DNA from: an uncultured Actinomycetota bacterium
GTDB taxonomy: Bacteria; Actinomycetota; Acidimicrobiia; Spongiisociales; UBA4744
NCBI GenBank assembly: GCA_963723165.1
Contig: CAVRPP010000010.1
Location: 128,882 to 192,881, forward strand
DNA: 64,000 nt
Direction: 5' to 3'
Positions 6,744-42,891 of this stretch are shown here, piece after piece. The stretch's first letter is position 1, and each line of letters opens with the position of its first letter. The notes beneath the pieces are model-generated. The model did not search any database, was not told where the DNA came from, and worked only from the letters and a program-made list of their open reading frames with translations. A program made the position numbers and the translations under genes.

Positions 6744-6777
6744 GCAGGAATGGTGTGCCTTCAGTGACGACTGACGA

Positions 6778-8346
6778 CTACTTCATCCGCTTCCGCAGCT
6801 CGTGCAGTTCGGGTGAGCGCATCAGTCGGGAAACGGCCAGGTAGACGGCCATCACAATGGCGGCACCAATCGCCACCAGTCCGAGTGAACCCCAGAACCC
6901 GGGTAGTTCGTCTCCCGAAATCCACTGCACCGCCAGCCAGGCAATCGGTGCGGAAACTGCCACCCCGACTGAACCTCTCACCAGGGCGCCGGCAATGGCG
7001 GAGACCCCCTCGCGACCCGCTCTCGAGTGCCAGGCGGTCCCCAGGACGATGGTGTAGAGAACCATTGCCAGGGTGCTGGCCACGGCGAAACCGGGCTCAT
7101 CGAAGCGGCTCAACCACCAGTACAGACCGATGGCTACGACGGTGCCGGCAGTTCCTATGAATACCGGGGTCCACATCTGGCGGCGAGCATAGAAGGCCCG
7201 GGAGTAGATCTGGTGGGCACCCCAGGCAGGGACCGAGAGGCCGTAGAACACCAGCAGCGTTGCCGTGAGCACGGTGTCGCTCGGACCGAACTCGCCCCGC
7301 TCGTAGACGACCCGTACGGCCGGTTGGGAAAGAGCGAGGATGGCGGCGACGGCCGGGGCGCTGACGAAAATGGTGTACCGGATCGTCCTGGCGACGGTGG
7401 CTGCCATCTCCTGAAGCTTGCCTTCTTCGACCAGTCTGGCCAGATAGGGATAGGCAGCCACGCCCGCAGTTTGGGCGATGACCCCGATGGGCAGCATGTT
7501 CAAACGGCGTGCGTAGGTGAGCGCAGAGATGCCACCTGCCTCGGTCAGCTGGCCGAAGAGCCGGACGAACTGTTCGTCGAGCACAGCGATCGATTGCCCG
7601 AGCATCAGAGGGAGGGCCAACAGCAAGTACTCCCGGAGAGCGGGATGCCGGAGCGGAACGCCGTTCACCCACCGCAGACCGGCCCGGCGGGCCCCGTACC
7701 ACTGCAGAGCGAAGTTGCCGACAAAGGCCCCCCCGACCGCACCCCAGGCGAAACCGGCAGCTGAGGTGCTGCCGATGGCCCACGAAATGAGTCCACCGGC
7801 GATGATGCCGAGGTTGTAGATGACCGGTGCGACGGCGGGGATGGCGAAACGCTGATGAGCGTATTGGACGGCCATCCACAGCGAACCAAGCACAAAGAAG
7901 ATCTGGGCGGGGAGGACGATGCGAGTAAGCCGGGTCACCTCGGCAGCCTGGGAGACGTCGAAGCGCGGGTACACCAGGTCCGTCAGCGATCCGGCGAAGA
8001 TCATCGCCAGTACCGTCAAGCCGAGCATCGCCAGTGCCACCGGACGAAAGACGGCGGCGAAAGCCCGATGTCCTTCCTCCACGTCGCCCCGCACCATGTG
8101 GCGAGTGATGATCGGGATGAAGGTCACCGTGAGGTACCCGCCGGCCATCAGATAGAACAGGACGTCGGGGATGACGAAGGCTGCCTGGTAGGCATCCCCG
8201 GCGGCGGTGTTGCCCAACAGGCCTGCCAGTGCGACGTTGCGAAGCATGCCGAGGACACGGGAAAGGAGGATCCCGGCGGATACGACCAGAGCGGCTTTGC
8301 CCATCCCTCCTGTCGATCCTCCGCTGTTGTCGCCGGGGTCGCTCAT
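6778..8346 (-). CDS. murJ: lipid II flippase MurJ (MviN)
   Basis: 522 aa; polytopic; 'ALVVSAGILLSRVLGMLRNVALAGLLG...DAYQAAFVIP' is a typical MurJ N-terminus. Confidence 0.85.
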   Translation of the reverse strand: MSDPGDNSGGSTGGMGKAALVVSAGILLSRVLGMLRNVALAGLLGNTAAGDAYQAAFVIPDVLFYLMAGGYLTVTFIPIITRHMVRGDVEEGHRAFAAVFRPVALAMLGLTVLAMIFAGSLTDLVYPRFDVSQAAEVTRLTRIVLPAQIFFVLGSLWMAVQYAHQRFAIPAVAPVIYNLGIIAGGLISWAIGSTSAAGFAWGAVGGAFVGNFALQWYGARRAGLRWVNGVPLRHPALREYLLLALPLMLGQSIAVLDEQFVRLFGQLTEAGGISALTYARRLNMLPIGVIAQTAGVAAYPYLARLVEEGKLQEMAATVARTIRYTIFVSAPAVAAILALSQPAVRVVYERGEFGPSDTVLTATLLVFYGLSVPAWGAHQIYSRAFYARRQMWTPVFIGTAGTVVAIGLYWWLSRFDEPGFAVASTLAMVLYTIVLGTAWHSRAGREGVSAIAGALVRGSVGVAVSAPIAWLAVQWISGDELPGFWGSLGLVAIGAAIVMAVYLAVSRLMRSPELHELRKRMK

Positions 8347-37310: not shown

Positions 37311-37469
37311 CCCGGTGACTCCTTGCGGTTTTCACCGGCAAAGGTAGCGGAGCCGCCGGCCTCCACCTAACGAGGGGGCCGCCCGAAACACAGCGTTCAC
37401 ATTCCTGCAACCGTCCAGTAATTGCGACCGGGTACAAAGCTCGGAGCACATAACGAAAGAGGAGCAACC

Positions 37470-38891
37470 ATGCCCAAAACACCTGCTGATGTCTTGGAAA
37501 TGCTCGGCGAGGACGTTGAGTTTGTCGACCTCCGGTTTGCGGACCTGCCCGGACAGGTGCAGCACTTCACCATCCCGGCCGGTCAACTCGACCTCGACTC
37601 TTTTGAGGAGGGTTTCGGGTTCGACGGTTCGTCCATCAGAGGATTTCAGGAGATCCAGGAATCGGACATGATTCTCAAACCGGATCCCGACACAGCTCTG
37701 ATCGATCCATTCATGGAACACAAGACCCTGTTGCTGTACTGCTTCGTACACGATCCGATCTCCCATGAGCCTTACAACCGTGACCCCCGCTACGTCGCCA
37801 AGAAGGCCGAGCAGTATCTGCTGGGGACCGGGCTGGCTGATACTTCCTACTGGGGCCCTGAGGCAGAGTTCTACATCTTCGACTCGGCCCGGTTTGCGCA
37901 GAACCAGTATTCGGCGTTCTACGAGGTCGATTCGATTGAGGGAGCCTGGAATTCCGGTGCTGAAGAGGATGGCCGGAACCTCGCATACAAGCCTCGATAC
38001 AAGGAGGGATATTTCCCGGTTCCACCGACCGATCACTTCCAGGACCTCCGCTCGGAGATGTCGGCCGTGCTGGCCAAAGCCGGGATCGAGGTTGAGGTCC
38101 ACCATCACGAAGTGGGCACCGCCGGCCAAGCCGAGATCGACATCCGGTACACCACCTTGCTGCGGCAAGCCGACAACGTCACCTTGTTCAAGTACATCGT
38201 CAAGAACGTGGCCTGGCAGTACGGGAAGACCGTGACCTTCATGCCGAAACCCATTTTCGAGGACAACGGGTCCGGCATGCATACCCACCAGAGTCTTTGG
38301 AAGGGTGGCGTCCCGCTGTTCTACGACGAGACCGGCTACGCCGGCCTGTCGGATATGGCTCGCTGGTATATCGGCGGGTTGCTCAAGCATGCCCGCGCCG
38401 TGCTGGCTTTCGCGGCACCCACCACTAACTCATATCGCCGCTTGGTGCCCGGCTACGAAGCGCCGGTCAACCTGGTCTATAGCCAGCGCAACCGGTCGGC
38501 CGCAGTCCGGATCCCCCTGTACTCGCAGAAACCCGCCCTCAAGCGGCTCGAGTTCCGCTGTCCGGATCCGGCCGCCAATGCCTACCTGGCTTTCTCCGCC
38601 ATGCTGATGGCCGGTTTGGACGGAATCGAGAACCAGATCGAACCGCCCCCGCCGGTCGACAAGGACATCTACGACCTGCCCCCCGAAGAGTTGAAGAATC
38701 TGCCATCGGTGCCGGCCAGCCTCGAAGAAGCCCTGGACGCGCTCGAAGCCGACCACGACTTCCTCTTGAAGGGCGACGTGTTCACCCCCGACCTGATCGA
38801 GGCATGGCTGGACTACAAGCGCAGCTCCGAAGTAGACGCCATGCGGCTGCGTCCCCACCCGTACGAGTTCTACATGTATTACGACATCTAG
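37470..38891 (+). CDS. glnA: glutamine synthetase type I (GlnA1-like)
   Basis: 473 aa; 'FDGSSIRGF','[10 protein letters not shown]', adenylylation-loop region; RBS GAAAGAGGAG. Confidence 0.9.
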
Positions 38892-39005
38892 GGGTACCTG
38901 CTCTCCCGCTGATGGCCGGCCGGCATTTCGGAAGACGGGGACGAGCAACCTCGCTCTCTGCCCGTCCGGGCTCAAGAGAGAGGTTCTGGCAACCGACAAT
39001 TACCT

Positions 39006-40883
39006 ATGGTCCTTCCAGGAGATGACAGGGCGGTTGGCTCGCGCCGGCCATCAGCGCTCGAGCCTGAGCCCGGCGTCGTCGCAGCAACCAGGTCTGTTGA
39101 ACTGCTCGAGCAAGAACTCGGTGAGCTGGTCTGGGAGACGGACAGCCGTCTGCGTTACGAACACGCCTTGGCCGAATGTGCCCGGGCGCTACTGACCTCG
39201 CCTCGAGAGTCCACCCTCGAGGTGGTCCTCAACGCATTGCTGTCGGCCACCGACGCCAGCTACGCCTTCATCGAGCGCAATGTCGACGATCCTTCGTTGG
39301 GCTTTTGCTCCCGCACGGTCCAAGAGGTTGAGCGTTCCGGGCTGGGAGAACCCGCGGACGACGGCTACTGGAGTCTTGTGCCCTGGGACCGGATGCCTAC
39401 ATCGCTAGCGGTTCTCGAGAAAGGCAATCCCTTCTCATTTCTCGTCGCCGAGCTCACCGGTCCGGAACGTGAGCTCTATCACGAGGACCCGTTTCCCGTA
39501 GTTTCAGAGCTCGACATCCCCATCTTCGTGAGAGATCGCTGGGTCGGACTCATCGGGTTCGCGGACAAGGCGGAGGCACGAACCTGGTCGGAAGAGGATC
39601 TACGTCTGCTGGAGGTCGCCGCCGCCTTGATCGGCTCCTACTGGGATCGTGAAGACTCCGAGTCTCTCCTTCGGGAGAACCTCCGGAGAGAGGAGGGGCG
39701 GGTACGTCGCGAACGGGCTCTCTCCAGGTGCTCGGCGGCCTTGCTCAAATCCGGGACCGAGGACGACCTCGACGTGGCGTTGAACGTGCTGTTGGAAGCA
39801 ACAGAGTCAAGCTCGGTCTTTGTCGAACGGAATGTCGATCATCCCGATCTTGGCCTTTGCTCATCGATGATCCTGGAAGCGCCGCTGTCGGCTTCGTCGG
39901 GCATATGGGAGATGGTTCCCTGGTCGTCAATGCCGATTTCACACCGACACCTGTCACGAGGAGAGACATTCTCTTTCCTGATCAAAGACCTCACCGGCAT
40001 CGAGGCGGAGACCTATGCCCGAAGCGACGCGAAATCGGAGCTCAACATACCGATTTTCGTCGATGGTGAGTGGGTAGGTTTGGTCGGGTTCACCGACCGC
40101 CTCACCGAACGTGTGTGGGATACCGAAGAAGTTGAGTTCCTGCGAACCGTATCCGAGATGATTGCCGCATTCTGGGAGCGGCAAGCTGCCTACGAGAAAC
40201 TCGAACAGTTAGTCCGTTCCAAGGACGAGTTCATTGCCAGCGTTAGCCACGAGTTGCGGACCCCTCTGACGGTTGTGGTGGGCCTGGCAAACGAGATGAA
40301 GGAAGGTTTCGGACAGTTCACAGACGATGAGCTCCGCGAATTCATCGGCCTGGTCGCCGGTCAAGGCAACGAGGTAGCCAATATCGTCGAAGACCTACTG
40401 GTGATTGCCCGGGCCGATATCGACAGGATCACGGTGCTCCCAGAGTCGGTGGATCTTGTTGCTCACGTGAGGGCGGTTTTCGCCGGACTCGAACAGGAGG
40501 AGGAATTGAACATCATCGGGCAGACGCCTCCGACCTGGTGCGACCCGGGGCGCCTTCGTCAGATCATTCGCAACCTGCTCACGAATGCAGTTCGATACGG
40601 CGGCGAGCGGGTACGTGTCGAGCTGGGAGTGATGGGCGATCATGCTCGTCTCGAAGTCTGCGACGACGGGCCCGGCATCGGTGAGCAGGATCAGGACCGG
40701 GTTTTCGAGGCATACCACCGTGCCCACGATCGGCGGGGTCAACCGGCCTCTGTGGGGCTGGGGCTCACGGTCAGCAAACGACTGGCCGAGCTGATGGGCG
40801 GCAACCTGGCCTACTACCGGAGGGACGGTTGGAGTGTGTTCGCGCTGTCGTTGCCACTTACCACCGGAGACATCGACGGTTAG
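39006..40883 (+). CDS. cytoplasmic sensor histidine kinase with tandem GAF domains
   Basis: two ~200-aa repeats of 'ERNVDxPxLGxCS...MVPW..MP' followed by H-box 'SHELRTPL' and a HATPase domain. Confidence 0.8.
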   Translation: MVLPGDDRAVGSRRPSALEPEPGVVAATRSVELLEQELGELVWETDSRLRYEHALAECARALLTSPRESTLEVVLNALLSATDASYAFIERNVDDPSLGFCSRTVQEVERSGLGEPADDGYWSLVPWDRMPTSLAVLEKGNPFSFLVAELTGPERELYHEDPFPVVSELDIPIFVRDRWVGLIGFADKAEARTWSEEDLRLLEVAAALIGSYWDREDSESLLRENLRREEGRVRRERALSRCSAALLKSGTEDDLDVALNVLLEATESSSVFVERNVDHPDLGLCSSMILEAPLSASSGIWEMVPWSSMPISHRHLSRGETFSFLIKDLTGIEAETYARSDAKSELNIPIFVDGEWVGLVGFTDRLTERVWDTEEVEFLRTVSEMIAAFWERQAAYEKLEQLVRSKDEFIASVSHELRTPLTVVVGLANEMKEGFGQFTDDELREFIGLVAGQGNEVANIVEDLLVIARADIDRITVLPESVDLVAHVRAVFAGLEQEEELNIIGQTPPTWCDPGRLRQIIRNLLTNAVRYGGERVRVELGVMGDHARLEVCDDGPGIGEQDQDRVFEAYHRAHDRRGQPASVGLGLTVSKRLAELMGGNLAYYRRDGWSVFALSLPLTTGDIDG

Positions 40884-40903
40884 CCGGTAACTACCCGGCT
40901 AAA

Positions 40904-41001
40904 AGACTTCCCGGCACCAGGGGGCGGGATGCCAGGCAAACATGGCATCGGCGCGGAGACCTCTTTCAGCGACCCTTCGATTCGCCCCGGCAGCCATGAG
41001 G
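40904..41001. repeat. ~98-bp direct repeat, copy 1 (decayed duplicate of the 3' end of the GNAT gene at 41668)
   Basis: ~93% identical to 41672-41770; copy 1 has a 1-nt indel and a TAG stop instead of TGA. Confidence 0.85.
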
Positions 41002-41007
41002 AGCCGG

Positions 41008-41442
41008 TCAGGAAGCTTCGCAATAGTCTTTGATTGCGTCGAGGTCTTGCGCGAGGGCTTTGCGGAGCATGGGTGAGATCAGCGGATTGACGAGACGGGC
41101 AAGCAACTTGTAGGGCTTCGCCTCCCCAACCATTGAAAGCTCCGTGCCTGCGTCGCCGGCACGGACCGTGAAAAGGGTATCCCAGATCGTTCCGCCCGCG
41201 TCCGAAACCAGCCTCACTCGCTCGTTCACCTCATACTCCGTGACTTCGAGCTCGGTGGATGCTTCCCGGCCGCGCATCACGCGGGTCTCCCGGAACCTCG
41301 CGCCGACCCCCGTACGGTTGTCGGACAAGAACTCGACGTTCACGATATGGGGGACAGCCTTTGAGAAGTTCTCAATGTGAGCGATGGTTTCAAAGACCTT
41401 CTCGACGGGAGCGGCAATCGTTCGGGACGCTCGTAGTGTGGA
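41008..41442 (-). CDS. SRPBCC (polyketide cyclase/dehydrase-like) protein
   Basis: 'IAAPVEKVFETIAHIENFSKAVPHI' Bet-v1-like N-terminus; internal ATG start chosen. Confidence 0.7.
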   Translation of the reverse strand, partial: STLRASRTIAAPVEKVFETIAHIENFSKAVPHIVNVEFLSDNRTGVGARFRETRVMRGREASTELEVTEYEVNERVRLVSDAGGTIWDTLFTVRAGDAGTELSMVGEAKPYKLLARLVNPLISPMLRKALAQDLDAIKDYCEAS

Positions 41443-41667
41443 CATTTCTCTCTCCTTCTCCCGTCGGGCTTGGAGATCTGCGGCTACCAAGCGGGACAAT
41501 CTCGGCAGGCTACCAACCGGCCGAGGGAGCGGACGGGTCTGTGCGTGTTGGGGCCGGTGCGAATTGTTGCAATTGCGCTGAGTCGTACGAAGCAAGCCGT
41601 AATCATTGGGGCTTTTCGGCGAAGCGGTCGACCGGATGAGCAGGCTACAGCAGGGCTTCAGGCCAGT

Positions 41668-42891
41668 TCAGAAGACTTCCTGGCACCAGGGGGCGGGATG
41701 CCAGGCAAACATGGAATCGGCGCGGAGAACCTCTTTCAGCGACCCTTCGATTCGCCCGGCAGCCTTGAGGTCGAGAGGGCGAACCCCTCCCAGGTAGATG
41801 GCCCCGAGATCGGAAGCGGACAACCGAATCTGTGGAACAGACGTGCTGCGGACGCAGCTCACGTCATCACCGTTCGCCTCGAGCAGATAGGTCCCGCCGA
41901 TGGACGGGTTGAAGTCGTCGTGGACTTCGATACTGAGGGTTCCGTCCCGGCTGTATTTCCTGGTCGCCAGGGCCGCCGGGATATCGATCGGGCATACCCA
42001 GAGAGAGTCGGTGATCCGGCGGTGAAGGCGGCGCGAGTCGGCGAGCAACCAGCGGAGGGGTTCGTCGGCCGGGAGGTTCCAGTATGTGATCCTGCGAATC
42101 AGGTCGATGGAGCCGAGGTAGCGCCACAGTCCGTCGGCAGCGGCCAGGTCGACGGCTTGAAGATCGATGATCCGGATTTCACCGTTGGGAAGGTCATCTG
42201 CATCCCAGTCCTCCTTGGCCCGATACTGGACGTACCCGCGAGGTATTCCGTCTTCTTCGTACACGGCGTACCGGTAGCTGGTGGCGCCGCTCCGTCGGCT
42301 TTCCGGATCCCGGAAGACCCGATGCTCCCACCACGCCTCCGACCGATCGAACATCCCGGGCCTCATGAGCCGGGTCTTCTCGAAGACGGCGGGAAGCAAG
42401 ATCCGCGCCTCAGTGGGATCGACGAGGCGGACGGCGCCAGATCCGTGTGGAGGTCCGGGCAGGACTGCGTGGCTCCGTTCGATTTCAGCGTCGACCCTGG
42501 TCACAGCGGGACCGAACCCGAACCGTCCGTATATGGAACTCTCCGATGCCCACAAGGCAGCCAGCGTATCGCCGCGAACCCGGGCTTCTTCGAAGTGGGC
42601 CCGCATCATCTGGCGAAGAACTCCCCGGCGCCGGTAGGTGGCAAGAACCGAAACCATGGTGGTTCCGGCCACCGCCGCCCGTCCGCCCGGCACGGTCATA
42701 TCGAGACTGAAGGCGCCGGCGGTGCCGATCATCTGGTCACCGTCGAATGCGGAGACGGTCCGGTCGATCTCGAGAATCGCTTTGAACGGTTCGAGGCCCT
42801 CGTCGGGAGGGTCGAACCCGAAGACCAATCCCATCAACCGGCGGAACTCCGGTCGTTCATCTTCCGTGATGGGGCGAACGGTGAAGGTCAT
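41668..42891 (-). CDS. Eis-like GNAT N-acetyltransferase (GNAT plus SCP2-like C-terminal domain)
   Basis: 407 aa; 'VLATYRRRGVLRQMM' acetyl-CoA motif; domain order typical of Eis. Confidence 0.75.
   Translation of the reverse strand: MTFTVRPITEDERPEFRRLMGLVFGFDPPDEGLEPFKAILEIDRTVSAFDGDQMIGTAGAFSLDMTVPGGRAAVAGTTMVSVLATYRRRGVLRQMMRAHFEEARVRGDTLAALWASESSIYGRFGFGPAVTRVDAEIERSHAVLPGPPHGSGAVRLVDPTEARILLPAVFEKTRLMRPGMFDRSEAWWEHRVFRDPESRRSGATSYRYAVYEEDGIPRGYVQYRAKEDWDADDLPNGEIRIIDLQAVDLAAADGLWRYLGSIDLIRRITYWNLPADEPLRWLLADSRRLHRRITDSLWVCPIDIPAALATRKYSRDGTLSIEVHDDFNPSIGGTYLLEANGDDVSCVRSTSVPQIRLSASDLGAIYLGGVRPLDLKAAGRIEGSLKEVLRADSMFAWHPAPWCQEVF
41672..41770. repeat. ~98-bp direct repeat, copy 2 (authentic 3' end of GNAT gene)
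   Basis: encodes the C-terminal 'LKEVLRADSMFAWHPAPWCQEVF' of the 41668..42891 ORF. Confidence 0.85.

Follow-up and report, generated by a model that had tools for sequence, protein, structure and literature searches.

Genomic islands and prophages that enter the 3' ends of genes are bracketed by attL and attR direct repeats, and integrase-less derivatives of such elements exist. Homology-facilitated illegitimate recombination (HFIR), known from Acinetobacter baylyi, Pseudomonas stutzeri and Streptococcus pneumoniae, takes up linear DNA of which one end finds its anchor through homology and the other joins at a microhomology of 3-10 bp (PMC3240628, PMC2884548). In an E. coli assay of HFIR, single-crossover integration of a re-circularised fragment left gene-end duplications of 109-950 bp on the flanks of the insert in 56 of 60 clones (PMC3240628). 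At Rhs, contact-dependent inhibition (CDI) and type VI secretion system (T6SS) effector loci, C-terminal displacement moves the resident 3' end of a gene further downstream, where it becomes a non-functional orphan (PMC5361080). We analysed a stretch of 64,000 nucleotides ("the window") of contig CAVRPP010000010.1 from an uncultured Actinomycetota bacterium of the class Acidimicrobiia, in which a small SRPBCC gene lies between two direct copies of the 3' end of an Eis-like GNAT gene. The repeat is probably a recombination scar, formed when two alternative layouts of the interval between glnA and GNAT were spliced by one illegitimate join and one homologous crossover.

The window was compared with loci on metagenome contigs, which are labelled here with L numbers and several of which are shorter than 3 kb; L001, L005, L007 and L134 all come from a single metagenome, JGI 3300045962. 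The direct repeat was found to consist of copy A (40903-41001) and copy B (41672-41770), both on the minus strand, with the SRPBCC gene and about 220 nt of its upstream DNA between them. Copy B is the in-use 3' end of GNAT, and the same protein end is encoded by an independent contig (protein P0364). Copy A is an orphaned and frameshifted relic of the last 98 nt of GNAT which, together with its TAG stop codon, occupies 40899-41001; together with the neighbouring gene for a histidine kinase (HK) it aligns without a break to the junction between the GNAT end and HK in L003, L131 and L133. A preliminary description, made from the sequence alone, had reported a direct repeat of about 98 bp flanking the SRPBCC gene, with one copy, starting at 40904, being a decayed duplicate of the GNAT gene end with an altered stop codon. 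The repeat is real, its start being shifted by 1 nt, and the relic is indeed a frameshifted 98-nt end copy with its own stop codon, TAG (40899-40901) against TGA (41668-41670) in the functional gene. The single 1-nt indel assigned to the relic was an undercount, as copy A has an extra G at 40988 and has also lost a T opposite 41729. These two indels compensate each other, and the last 19 codons of the relic (LRADAMFAWHPAPWCREVF*) are in frame. Within the 64 kb, a 33-nt core of the repeat has exactly two occurrences, where 100 shuffles gave an expectation of 0, and the repeat is thus not a common dispersed element there, as had been considered.

Three substitutions and the two single-base indels separate copies A and B (95 matches in 100 aligned columns); when the count is carried through the stop codon, six substitutions and two indels are found in 104 columns, giving eight differing positions. 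Polarised against L003 and L131, the derived changes are those at 41765, 41715 and the TGA stop in copy B, and those at 40912, 40902, the added G at 40988 and the missing T in copy A. The differences are scattered over the whole repeat and are not confined to one side of a crossover point. Past the stop codon, the B side is only about 68% like the relic side, although the 98 nt are 95% alike. Both copies thus go back to a single sequence of the GNAT end type named alpha-prime below, with the reading frame lost in copy A only.

The GNAT orthologues of the comparators form a graded series of similarity to the window. Empty sites were detected on five contigs (L003/L004, L131/L132 and L133), in which GNAT stands tail-to-tail with HK and the glnA-GNAT interval is free of SRPBCC; the gene order is GNAT, convergent HK, glnA, and the GNAT of L003/L004 has 79% amino acid identity to that of the window. 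The GNAT/HK junction is also uninterrupted in L134, but there the SRPBCC cassette is present elsewhere in the interval. On all of these contigs the HK orthologues abut or overlap the GNAT 3' end, the two genes overlapping by 4 nt or lying 15 nt apart. The relic and HK of the window (40997-40401) form one unbroken alignment block to the empty-site GNAT/HK junction, while the window GNAT (43000-41670) aligns to the same loci and ends at the same point as the relic. Since both repeat copies map to a single empty-site segment, the SRPBCC segment is an insertion, and the relic sits at the ancestral position of the GNAT end. The direct adjacency of HK and GNAT in relatives, anticipated in the preliminary description, is therefore seen in L003/L004, L131/L132 and L133, and these empty sites speak against the old, fixed duplication that would be implied if all relatives carried both repeat copies.

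The cassette is about 660 bp long (about 41655-40998), and elsewhere it also has a tail of about 140 nt that the window lacks. The stretch 40998-41561 is 96.3% identical to L134 and the stretch 40998-41633 is 93.7% identical to L007, while identity in the GNAT, HK and glnA flanks is 77-85%. Synonymous divergence (dS) between the window and L134 is 0.077 for SRPBCC, as compared with 0.72 for GNAT, 0.84 for HK and 0.97 for glnA; the corresponding values are 0.108 for SRPBCC and 0.88 for GNAT between the window and L007, and 0.12 and 0.33 between L134 and L007. At the cassette border identity rises abruptly, from 58-86% to 92-100%, and the non-coding 5' part of the cassette is equally conserved (the window and L134 differ at 6 of 107 nt). 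The SRPBCC protein is 96.6-97.3% identical to the L134 and L007 proteins. The cassette has been exchanged recently between lineages. The earlier proposal that the SRPBCC gene and its upstream region were inserted as a cassette by recombination at the GNAT end is borne out by the empty sites and by the identity of the cassette (94-96%) against that of its flanks (about 80%); its extent is now set by the bounds given above and by the tail found in other contexts. The GC content and codon usage of the insert, proposed as a check, showed no anomaly (GC 0.601 against 0.636 +/- 0.025; SRPBCC GC3 0.73, within the local range), and this unremarkable composition fits a donor that is closely related. 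The window and its closest relative, L001, have the GNAT-spacer-cassette junction in common. Their cassettes differ at 13 of 107 positions in the non-coding part and by a dS of 0.165 over 35 codons, which equals the neutral background (dS 0.116 for GNAT codons 1-365 and 0.097 for the upstream gene), as expected if both had inherited the cassette.

We then located the junction between cassette and relic. The tail of about 140 nt between the SRPBCC stop and the glnA stop is common to L007, L134 and L135, and only its first 10 nt are present in the window before the relic begins. The first 6 nt past the SRPBCC stop lie at 41002-41007, and comparison of the three tails with window copy B and L003 places the switch from tail to relic within the next four, CCTC (40998-41001, minus strand as are the 6 nt), which is found both in the tail (TGACCGGC.CCTC) and at GNAT position -98 (CGACCTC|AAGG). 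Microhomology of at least 4 nt is expected at 2.1% of random junctions drawn from this region (P = 0.021). The window is not the only locus with an orphan fragment of an anchor gene beside the insert. In L007, positions 970-991 (CTA+GATGTCGTAGTACATGTAG) correspond to the last six glnA codons and the ancestral TAG, a truncated duplicate of 22 nt; a 20-nt core of it (20/20) recurs at the in-use glnA end (2033-2055), where the stop is TGA. In L134, 66 nt of internal GNAT sequence (nt 455-519; 63/66 match to its own GNAT) run straight into a 5'-truncated cassette located beyond HK.

Other parts of these loci were also aligned. Positions 1895-2032 of L007 are the tail shared with L134 and L135, and 1213-1257 align to L135. 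The stretch of about 220 nt between the glnA-end relic and the cassette (992-1212) has no homologue in the window or in any comparator locus, and a 78-aa open reading frame (ORF) in this region, which ends in the YMYYDI* of the relic, is probably spurious. A motif of about 24 nt, CCCCAAT(T)GATTAC.G.CTGTTTC, occurs in L007 at 1282-1305 and again at 2013-2035, abutting the glnA stop, and in the cassette 5' region of the window at 41590-41613; this motif pair may be a trace of an older duplication from the first landing of the cassette beside glnA. In L002, the 89-nt spacer between GNAT and glnA is similar to the first 45 nt or so that follow the GNAT stop of L001, and the 10 nt directly preceding the glnA stop agree with the end of the cassette tail; this is weak evidence that L002 may be a deletion derivative of the layout in which the cassette follows GNAT.

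The GNAT gene of the window was found to be a mosaic. It is 96-100% identical to L001 up to about 41786, and then about 60% identical as far as the last 17 nt, which are universally conserved; the stop codon and the next 17 nt or so also differ from L001. The divergent tract, referred to as alpha-prime (41651-41785, minus strand, from sliding identity and dS), shares about 60% identity with L001 and L002, about 82% with L003 and L131, and 95% with the relic, and has a sharp left breakpoint between 41786 and 41838. For codons 366-407, dS between the window and L001 is 0.86, against 0.116 for codons 1-365, while between L001 and L002 it is 0.32 against 0.35 for the body of the gene. As end and body agree in the latter pair, L001 and L002 are vertical in this part and the GNAT end of the window is the replaced one. 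Three end types can be distinguished: alpha-prime in the window (with the end LDLKAAGRIEGSLKEV), a second in L001 and L002, and a third in L133, L134, L007 and L135. P0364, a protein of an independent JGI contig, is identical to the window GNAT over the last 232 residues, indicating that the alpha-prime allele is real. Copy B had been taken as the genuine GNAT 3' end, and it is the true end of a gene in use, but it is itself a recombinant tract in an otherwise L001-like gene. In B the alpha-prime tract reaches at least 15 nt further upstream than the relic does, and copy B was therefore not simply copied from the present relic; gene conversion from relic to in-use copy was accordingly set aside as the cause of their 95% identity.

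The insertion, the empty sites, the recent exchange of the cassette between lineages, the microhomology junction and the mosaic GNAT are observed; in what order things happened, which way the DNA moved and what form it came in are inferred. In layout 1, GNAT is followed by about 17 nt, the SRPBCC cassette of about 660 bp, its tail of about 140 nt and a convergent glnA; this order is intact in L135, and L001 has the GNAT-cassette junction but its contig breaks off within the SRPBCC gene. In layout 2, GNAT stands tail-to-tail against the GAF histidine kinase, followed by glnA, as in L003/L004, L131/L132 and L133. The window would then follow layout 1 as far as the tenth nucleotide after the SRPBCC stop and, with the join at CCTC, continue as layout 2 from GNAT position -98. 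Each parent would have given its own, near-identical GNAT 3' end, and a direct repeat would have resulted; the left end would have been kept in use, and the right one would be a truncated orphan that gained its two frameshifts later. A single illegitimate join would suffice, the other crossover being homologous, and no dedicated recombinase would be needed. Incoming linear DNA may have recombined by HFIR, or a re-circularised fragment may have integrated by a single crossover through the GNAT-end homology of about 100 bp; the data fit either route. The alpha-prime tract in an L001-like gene would represent one more homologous exchange, either a patch of about 135 nt, with the strongly conserved cassette as its right bound, or the left margin of a more extensive import from an alpha-prime lineage already carrying the scar.

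The fusion of two layouts is supported by the empty sites around the insert, the low dS of the cassette, the CCTC junction and the orphan duplicates at other cassette borders, and the confinement of the cassette to the glnA-GNAT interval points to a dependence on homology. Several observations weigh against it. No sampled contig has layout 1 with an alpha-prime GNAT end, and one parent is thus hypothetical; P0364 has the right end at the protein level. An extra recombination step is needed for the alpha-prime copy B inside an L001-like gene, either the patch or import of the whole right side, and these two are not separable because the cassette divergence between the window and L001 (12%) equals the neutral background. 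The GNAT breakpoint at 41786-41838 lies in the anchor gene, and may stem from the same event as the illegitimate join or from another. The 4-nt microhomology is only modestly significant, L134 requires a second deletion step, and L007 has the 220 nt or so at 992-1212 that match none of the loci compared. All comparators are metagenome contigs, several of them below 3 kb, and the closest relative, L001, does not cover the right-hand junction.

The alternatives differ in what they make of the repeat. A cassette fragment might have been captured in situ, with no homologous anchor, at a staggered double-strand break at the GNAT/HK junction; end joining with fill-in, or template switching of the microhomology-mediated break-induced replication type, would have duplicated about 100-116 nt and left both convergent genes with intact ends. 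Such a long target duplication would account for the alpha-prime type of both copies, with few private changes in each as if identical at birth, for an alpha-prime tract in B that, as if native, extends further upstream than the repeat, and for the microhomology at the junction; L007 has a flanking duplication too (20-22 nt). We nevertheless consider this event unlikely, since the GNAT-spacer-cassette junction is shared with L001 and similar in L135, which makes the left junction inherited or imported ready-made. The post-stop sequences of B and relic are also only about 68% alike, against 95% over the 98 nt, and the cassette is found only inside the glnA-GNAT interval. The locus might otherwise have arisen purely within one genome, by an old tandem duplication of GNAT end, HK and cassette followed by deletions. 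In an L134-like layout, tandem duplication from GNAT(-98) through HK to cassette(+10) would indeed give the exact cassette(+10)|GNAT(-98) junction. At least two further deletions, one of them precise, would be needed, however, and a history free of horizontal transfer explains neither a cassette dS ten times below flank dS between lineages nor the GNAT-cassette junction common to L001 and L135; we hold it to be very improbable. An assembly artefact, that is, a false duplication from joining two co-occurring strains, deserves mention as the window belongs to a metagenome-derived contig of 194 kb and strains with both layouts co-occur in JGI 3300045962 (L001, L005, L007, L134). It is hardly credible, because the copies differ at eight positions including indels, the overlap at the novel junction is just 4 nt, far under any assembler k-mer, and the identical alpha-prime GNAT end is found again in P0364, from an independent JGI contig. 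A recent import of HK and relic from the L003 lineage was also considered and dropped, as the comparison gave a mild, diffuse affinity and no sharp tract.

Mobile elements were considered along with these. The anatomy of the locus is like that of islands in gene 3' ends, with a direct repeat that does derive from the 3' end of the target gene, the in-use copy by the gene body and the displaced copy at the far border, and in the window and L007 alike the in-use copy has exchanged the stop TAG for TGA. A non-autonomous site-specific element resembling cis-mobilizable or miniature inverted-repeat transposable elements, acted on in trans by a tyrosine or serine recombinase, could in principle have carried a replacement 3' end and left the repeats as attL and attR. 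We judge this improbable. The borders differ among the window, L007, L134 and L135, the last three of which have no GNAT-end repeat; the flanking duplicates measure 98 nt, 22 nt or 66 nt (one-sided) or are absent, a pattern that a fixed attP cannot yield; and A and B differ at positions throughout the repeat. No recombinase gene was found in the cassette or the annotated neighbourhood, although a trans-acting enzyme elsewhere in the genome is possible. A related and equally improbable idea is that the SRPBCC unit of about 660 bp is a non-autonomous mobile cassette with recognition features of its own, such as the 5' motif and the palindrome, moved by a trans-acting system into the 3' ends of convergent genes with target duplications of 20-116 nt; such a unit could be related to the attC-like arrays that hold distant homologues.

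The preliminary description had stated that no integrase or transposase is present, and this was upheld: none was found among the annotated syntenic neighbours (GNAT, HK, glnA, glnA2, a response regulator, Nfu, hydantoinases and a few small or medium ORFs without a Pfam match), and the insert encodes SRPBCC only. No pairs of inverted repeats were found at the borders 41002/41671. A transposon, insertion sequence or miniature inverted-repeat element was rejected, there being no terminal inverted repeats and the flanking duplicates (98 nt, 22 nt or absent) not being of fixed length. The only tRNA is 27 kb away. Phage collections gave no match, and plasmid collections a single distant one (37%). 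Rfam gave nothing in 40500-42000 or in L007, and no sigma-70-like promoter or intrinsic terminator was found in 40800-41800. No attC-type repeat of integrons was seen by eye at the window cassette, with its 5' region of about 200 nt and 10 nt past the stop, no attC model having been run. Distant SRPBCC homologues (about 54%) in the marine contigs L028 and L029 lie in runs of small same-strand genes (glyoxalase, DUF1428, AHSA1), separated by intergenic repeats of 55-115 nt that start with GATAACAA (L028 1584-1665 and 2919-3000; L029 5856-5914, 6454-6512 and 7872-7924). This arrangement looks like an integron-type attC cassette array or a cluster of attC sites lacking an integron-integrase. Direct repeats around distant SRPBCC homologues are attC-like intergenic repeats or tandem paralogues, a phenomenon different from that of the window.

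The content of the glnA-GNAT interval is highly variable. It comprises HK in L003, L131 and L133, nothing in L002, an extracytoplasmic function (ECF) sigma factor and a partner in L005/L006, the cassette alone in L135 and L007, and both cassette and HK, in opposite orders, in L134 and the window. The cassette itself stands after GNAT (window, L001, L135), beside glnA without HK (L007, L135) or between HK and glnA (L134). The interval is a recombination hot spot. The ECF sigma-70 gene and the gene for its partner of 224-229 aa, which has no Pfam match, replace HK at 9335-10547 of L005 and 1570-2782 of L006, and the partner is likely an anti-sigma factor. L003 and L131 are 96-99% identical in glnA2, glnA, GNAT and the 3' two-thirds of HK, and 63-80% identical in the glnA-HK spacer and the first third of HK with the N-terminal GAF region (window-equivalent 38844-39600); this stretch of low identity is another recombination tract of the same hot spot. 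In L135, GNAT is called as two ORFs (6752-7918) and the SRPBCC start codon is AAG instead of ATG (8163-8165), which could be a long-read assembly error or incipient decay of both genes.

The AATTG-N3-CAATT palindrome noted earlier upstream of the SRPBCC gene is present at 41562-41574, but it is not a required feature of the cassette: L007 has it conserved and L135 in degenerate form, and L001 and L134, two of the five cassette copies, lack it. In L001 (about 2241-2248; window 41555-41606) a 51-nt deletion flanked by GCCCCAA direct repeats removes it, and the truncation point of the cassette in L134 (L134 1445; window 41561/41562) abuts it. Rearrangement breakpoints thus cluster at the palindrome.

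The remaining parts of the locus are as follows. The HK gene (39006-40883, plus strand) encodes a GAF-GAF-HisKA-HATPase protein of 625 aa by Pfam; it is convergent with the relic and would belong to the layout 2 side of the fusion. A spacer of 15 nt (40884-40898) separates the HK stop from the relic stop, the same as in the empty site L131 (HK end 6878, GNAT end 6894). The SRPBCC cargo gene (41008-41445, minus strand) encodes a protein of 145 aa (Polyketide_cyc2; Pfam E 1.2e-14), which also gave a sub-threshold match to the NCBIfam model of the Rv0910-family type II toxin (E 2.6e-5, 24 bits, cutoff 100). When metagenome and genome collections were scanned with this protein, relatives of at most 70% identity were obtained from many phyla, which were uninformative for the junctions. 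Homologues at 50-70% identity occur in Gemmatimonadota, Dehalococcoidia, Planctomycetota, Acidobacteriota and others, many of them in metagenome-assembled genomes of sponge or marine origin, a distribution that suggests wide spread of this small gene by horizontal transfer. The cassette 5' non-coding region (41446-41655, minus strand), delimited by alignment to L007, L134, L135 and L001, contains the palindrome and the motif CCCCAATGATTAC (about 41590-41613); the alignment reaches about 41633-41655 with L007 and 41561 with L134. It is followed by a short spacer past the GNAT stop (41656-41667, minus strand), which sequence comparison places within the divergent tract, and by the Eis-like GNAT gene (41668-42891, minus strand), which encodes 407 aa with Acetyltransf_9, Acetyltransf_17 and SCP2_2 domains by Pfam, belongs to the NCBIfam PRK01346 subfamily and has a body 96% identical to L001. 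For glnA (37422-38891), the ORF list gives a TTG start at 37422 (489 aa), and the orthologues have 473 aa; the true start is probably the ATG at 37470.

These loci illustrate how a small accessory gene, a sensor kinase and a sigma/anti-sigma pair can be shuffled among related genomes without mobile-element machinery. Co-occurring uncultured Acidimicrobiia-like lineages of marine origin provide the empty sites, a candidate parental layout and three scars at one hot spot, which adjoins genes of nitrogen assimilation. For annotation, the locus is a caution that a long direct repeat of a gene end does not imply an integrase-borne island.

Compared with the systems described above, the locus is like islands in gene 3' ends in that a repeat of the target gene end brackets the insert and the gene stays intact, but unlike them in having no integrase, an insert of only 670 bp, and the same cassette with different or no repeats elsewhere. 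Membership in the att-flanked islands is thus not supported, given the variable borders and the lack of an integrase in or beside the insert. With HFIR it would have in common one homologous anchor in a conserved gene (GNAT or glnA), one illegitimate end, at CCTC, within the range of 3-10 bp, a gain of about 0.7 kb from a related lineage, and no need for a dedicated recombinase. HFIR was defined by experiment, whereas the process here is read from a natural scar in uncultured bacteria. In a typical HFIR product, the inserted DNA is accompanied by a deletion of about the same length; at this locus the illegitimate joint would lie inside the resident copy of the anchor gene, and a 98-nt duplicate therefore remains. 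Single-crossover (Campbell-type) integration leaves a footprint identical to that of the window, a direct duplication of a gene end of about 100 bp flanking the insert, with one illegitimate joint closing the circle. The substrate of that assay was an engineered plasmid, while a natural circle of 770 bp made up of GNAT end and cassette is hypothetical, and the 22-nt duplication of L007 is too short for an efficient RecA crossover.

The closest natural analogue is the C-terminal displacement, with orphaned 3' fragments, of Rhs, CDI and T6SS loci (PMC5361080, which cites Jackson et al. 2009). In both cases DNA anchored in the conserved part of a gene would bring a new 3' end together with cargo, the resident end becomes a non-functional orphan, and the locus is a recombination hot spot with alternative cargo. 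Those loci have diverse toxin ends with immunity genes, under diversifying selection, whereas the two ends here share 95% identity and code for one and the same SCP2-domain tail, with a small, unrelated SRPBCC gene as cargo. To our knowledge, HFIR and one-sided recombination are well characterised in the laboratory but have rarely been documented base by base in natural genomes, and the published natural cases are mostly toxin loci. The locus does not represent a new class of element; it is an unusually well-resolved natural case of gene capture by recombination, a known process, with an orphan gene end left behind.

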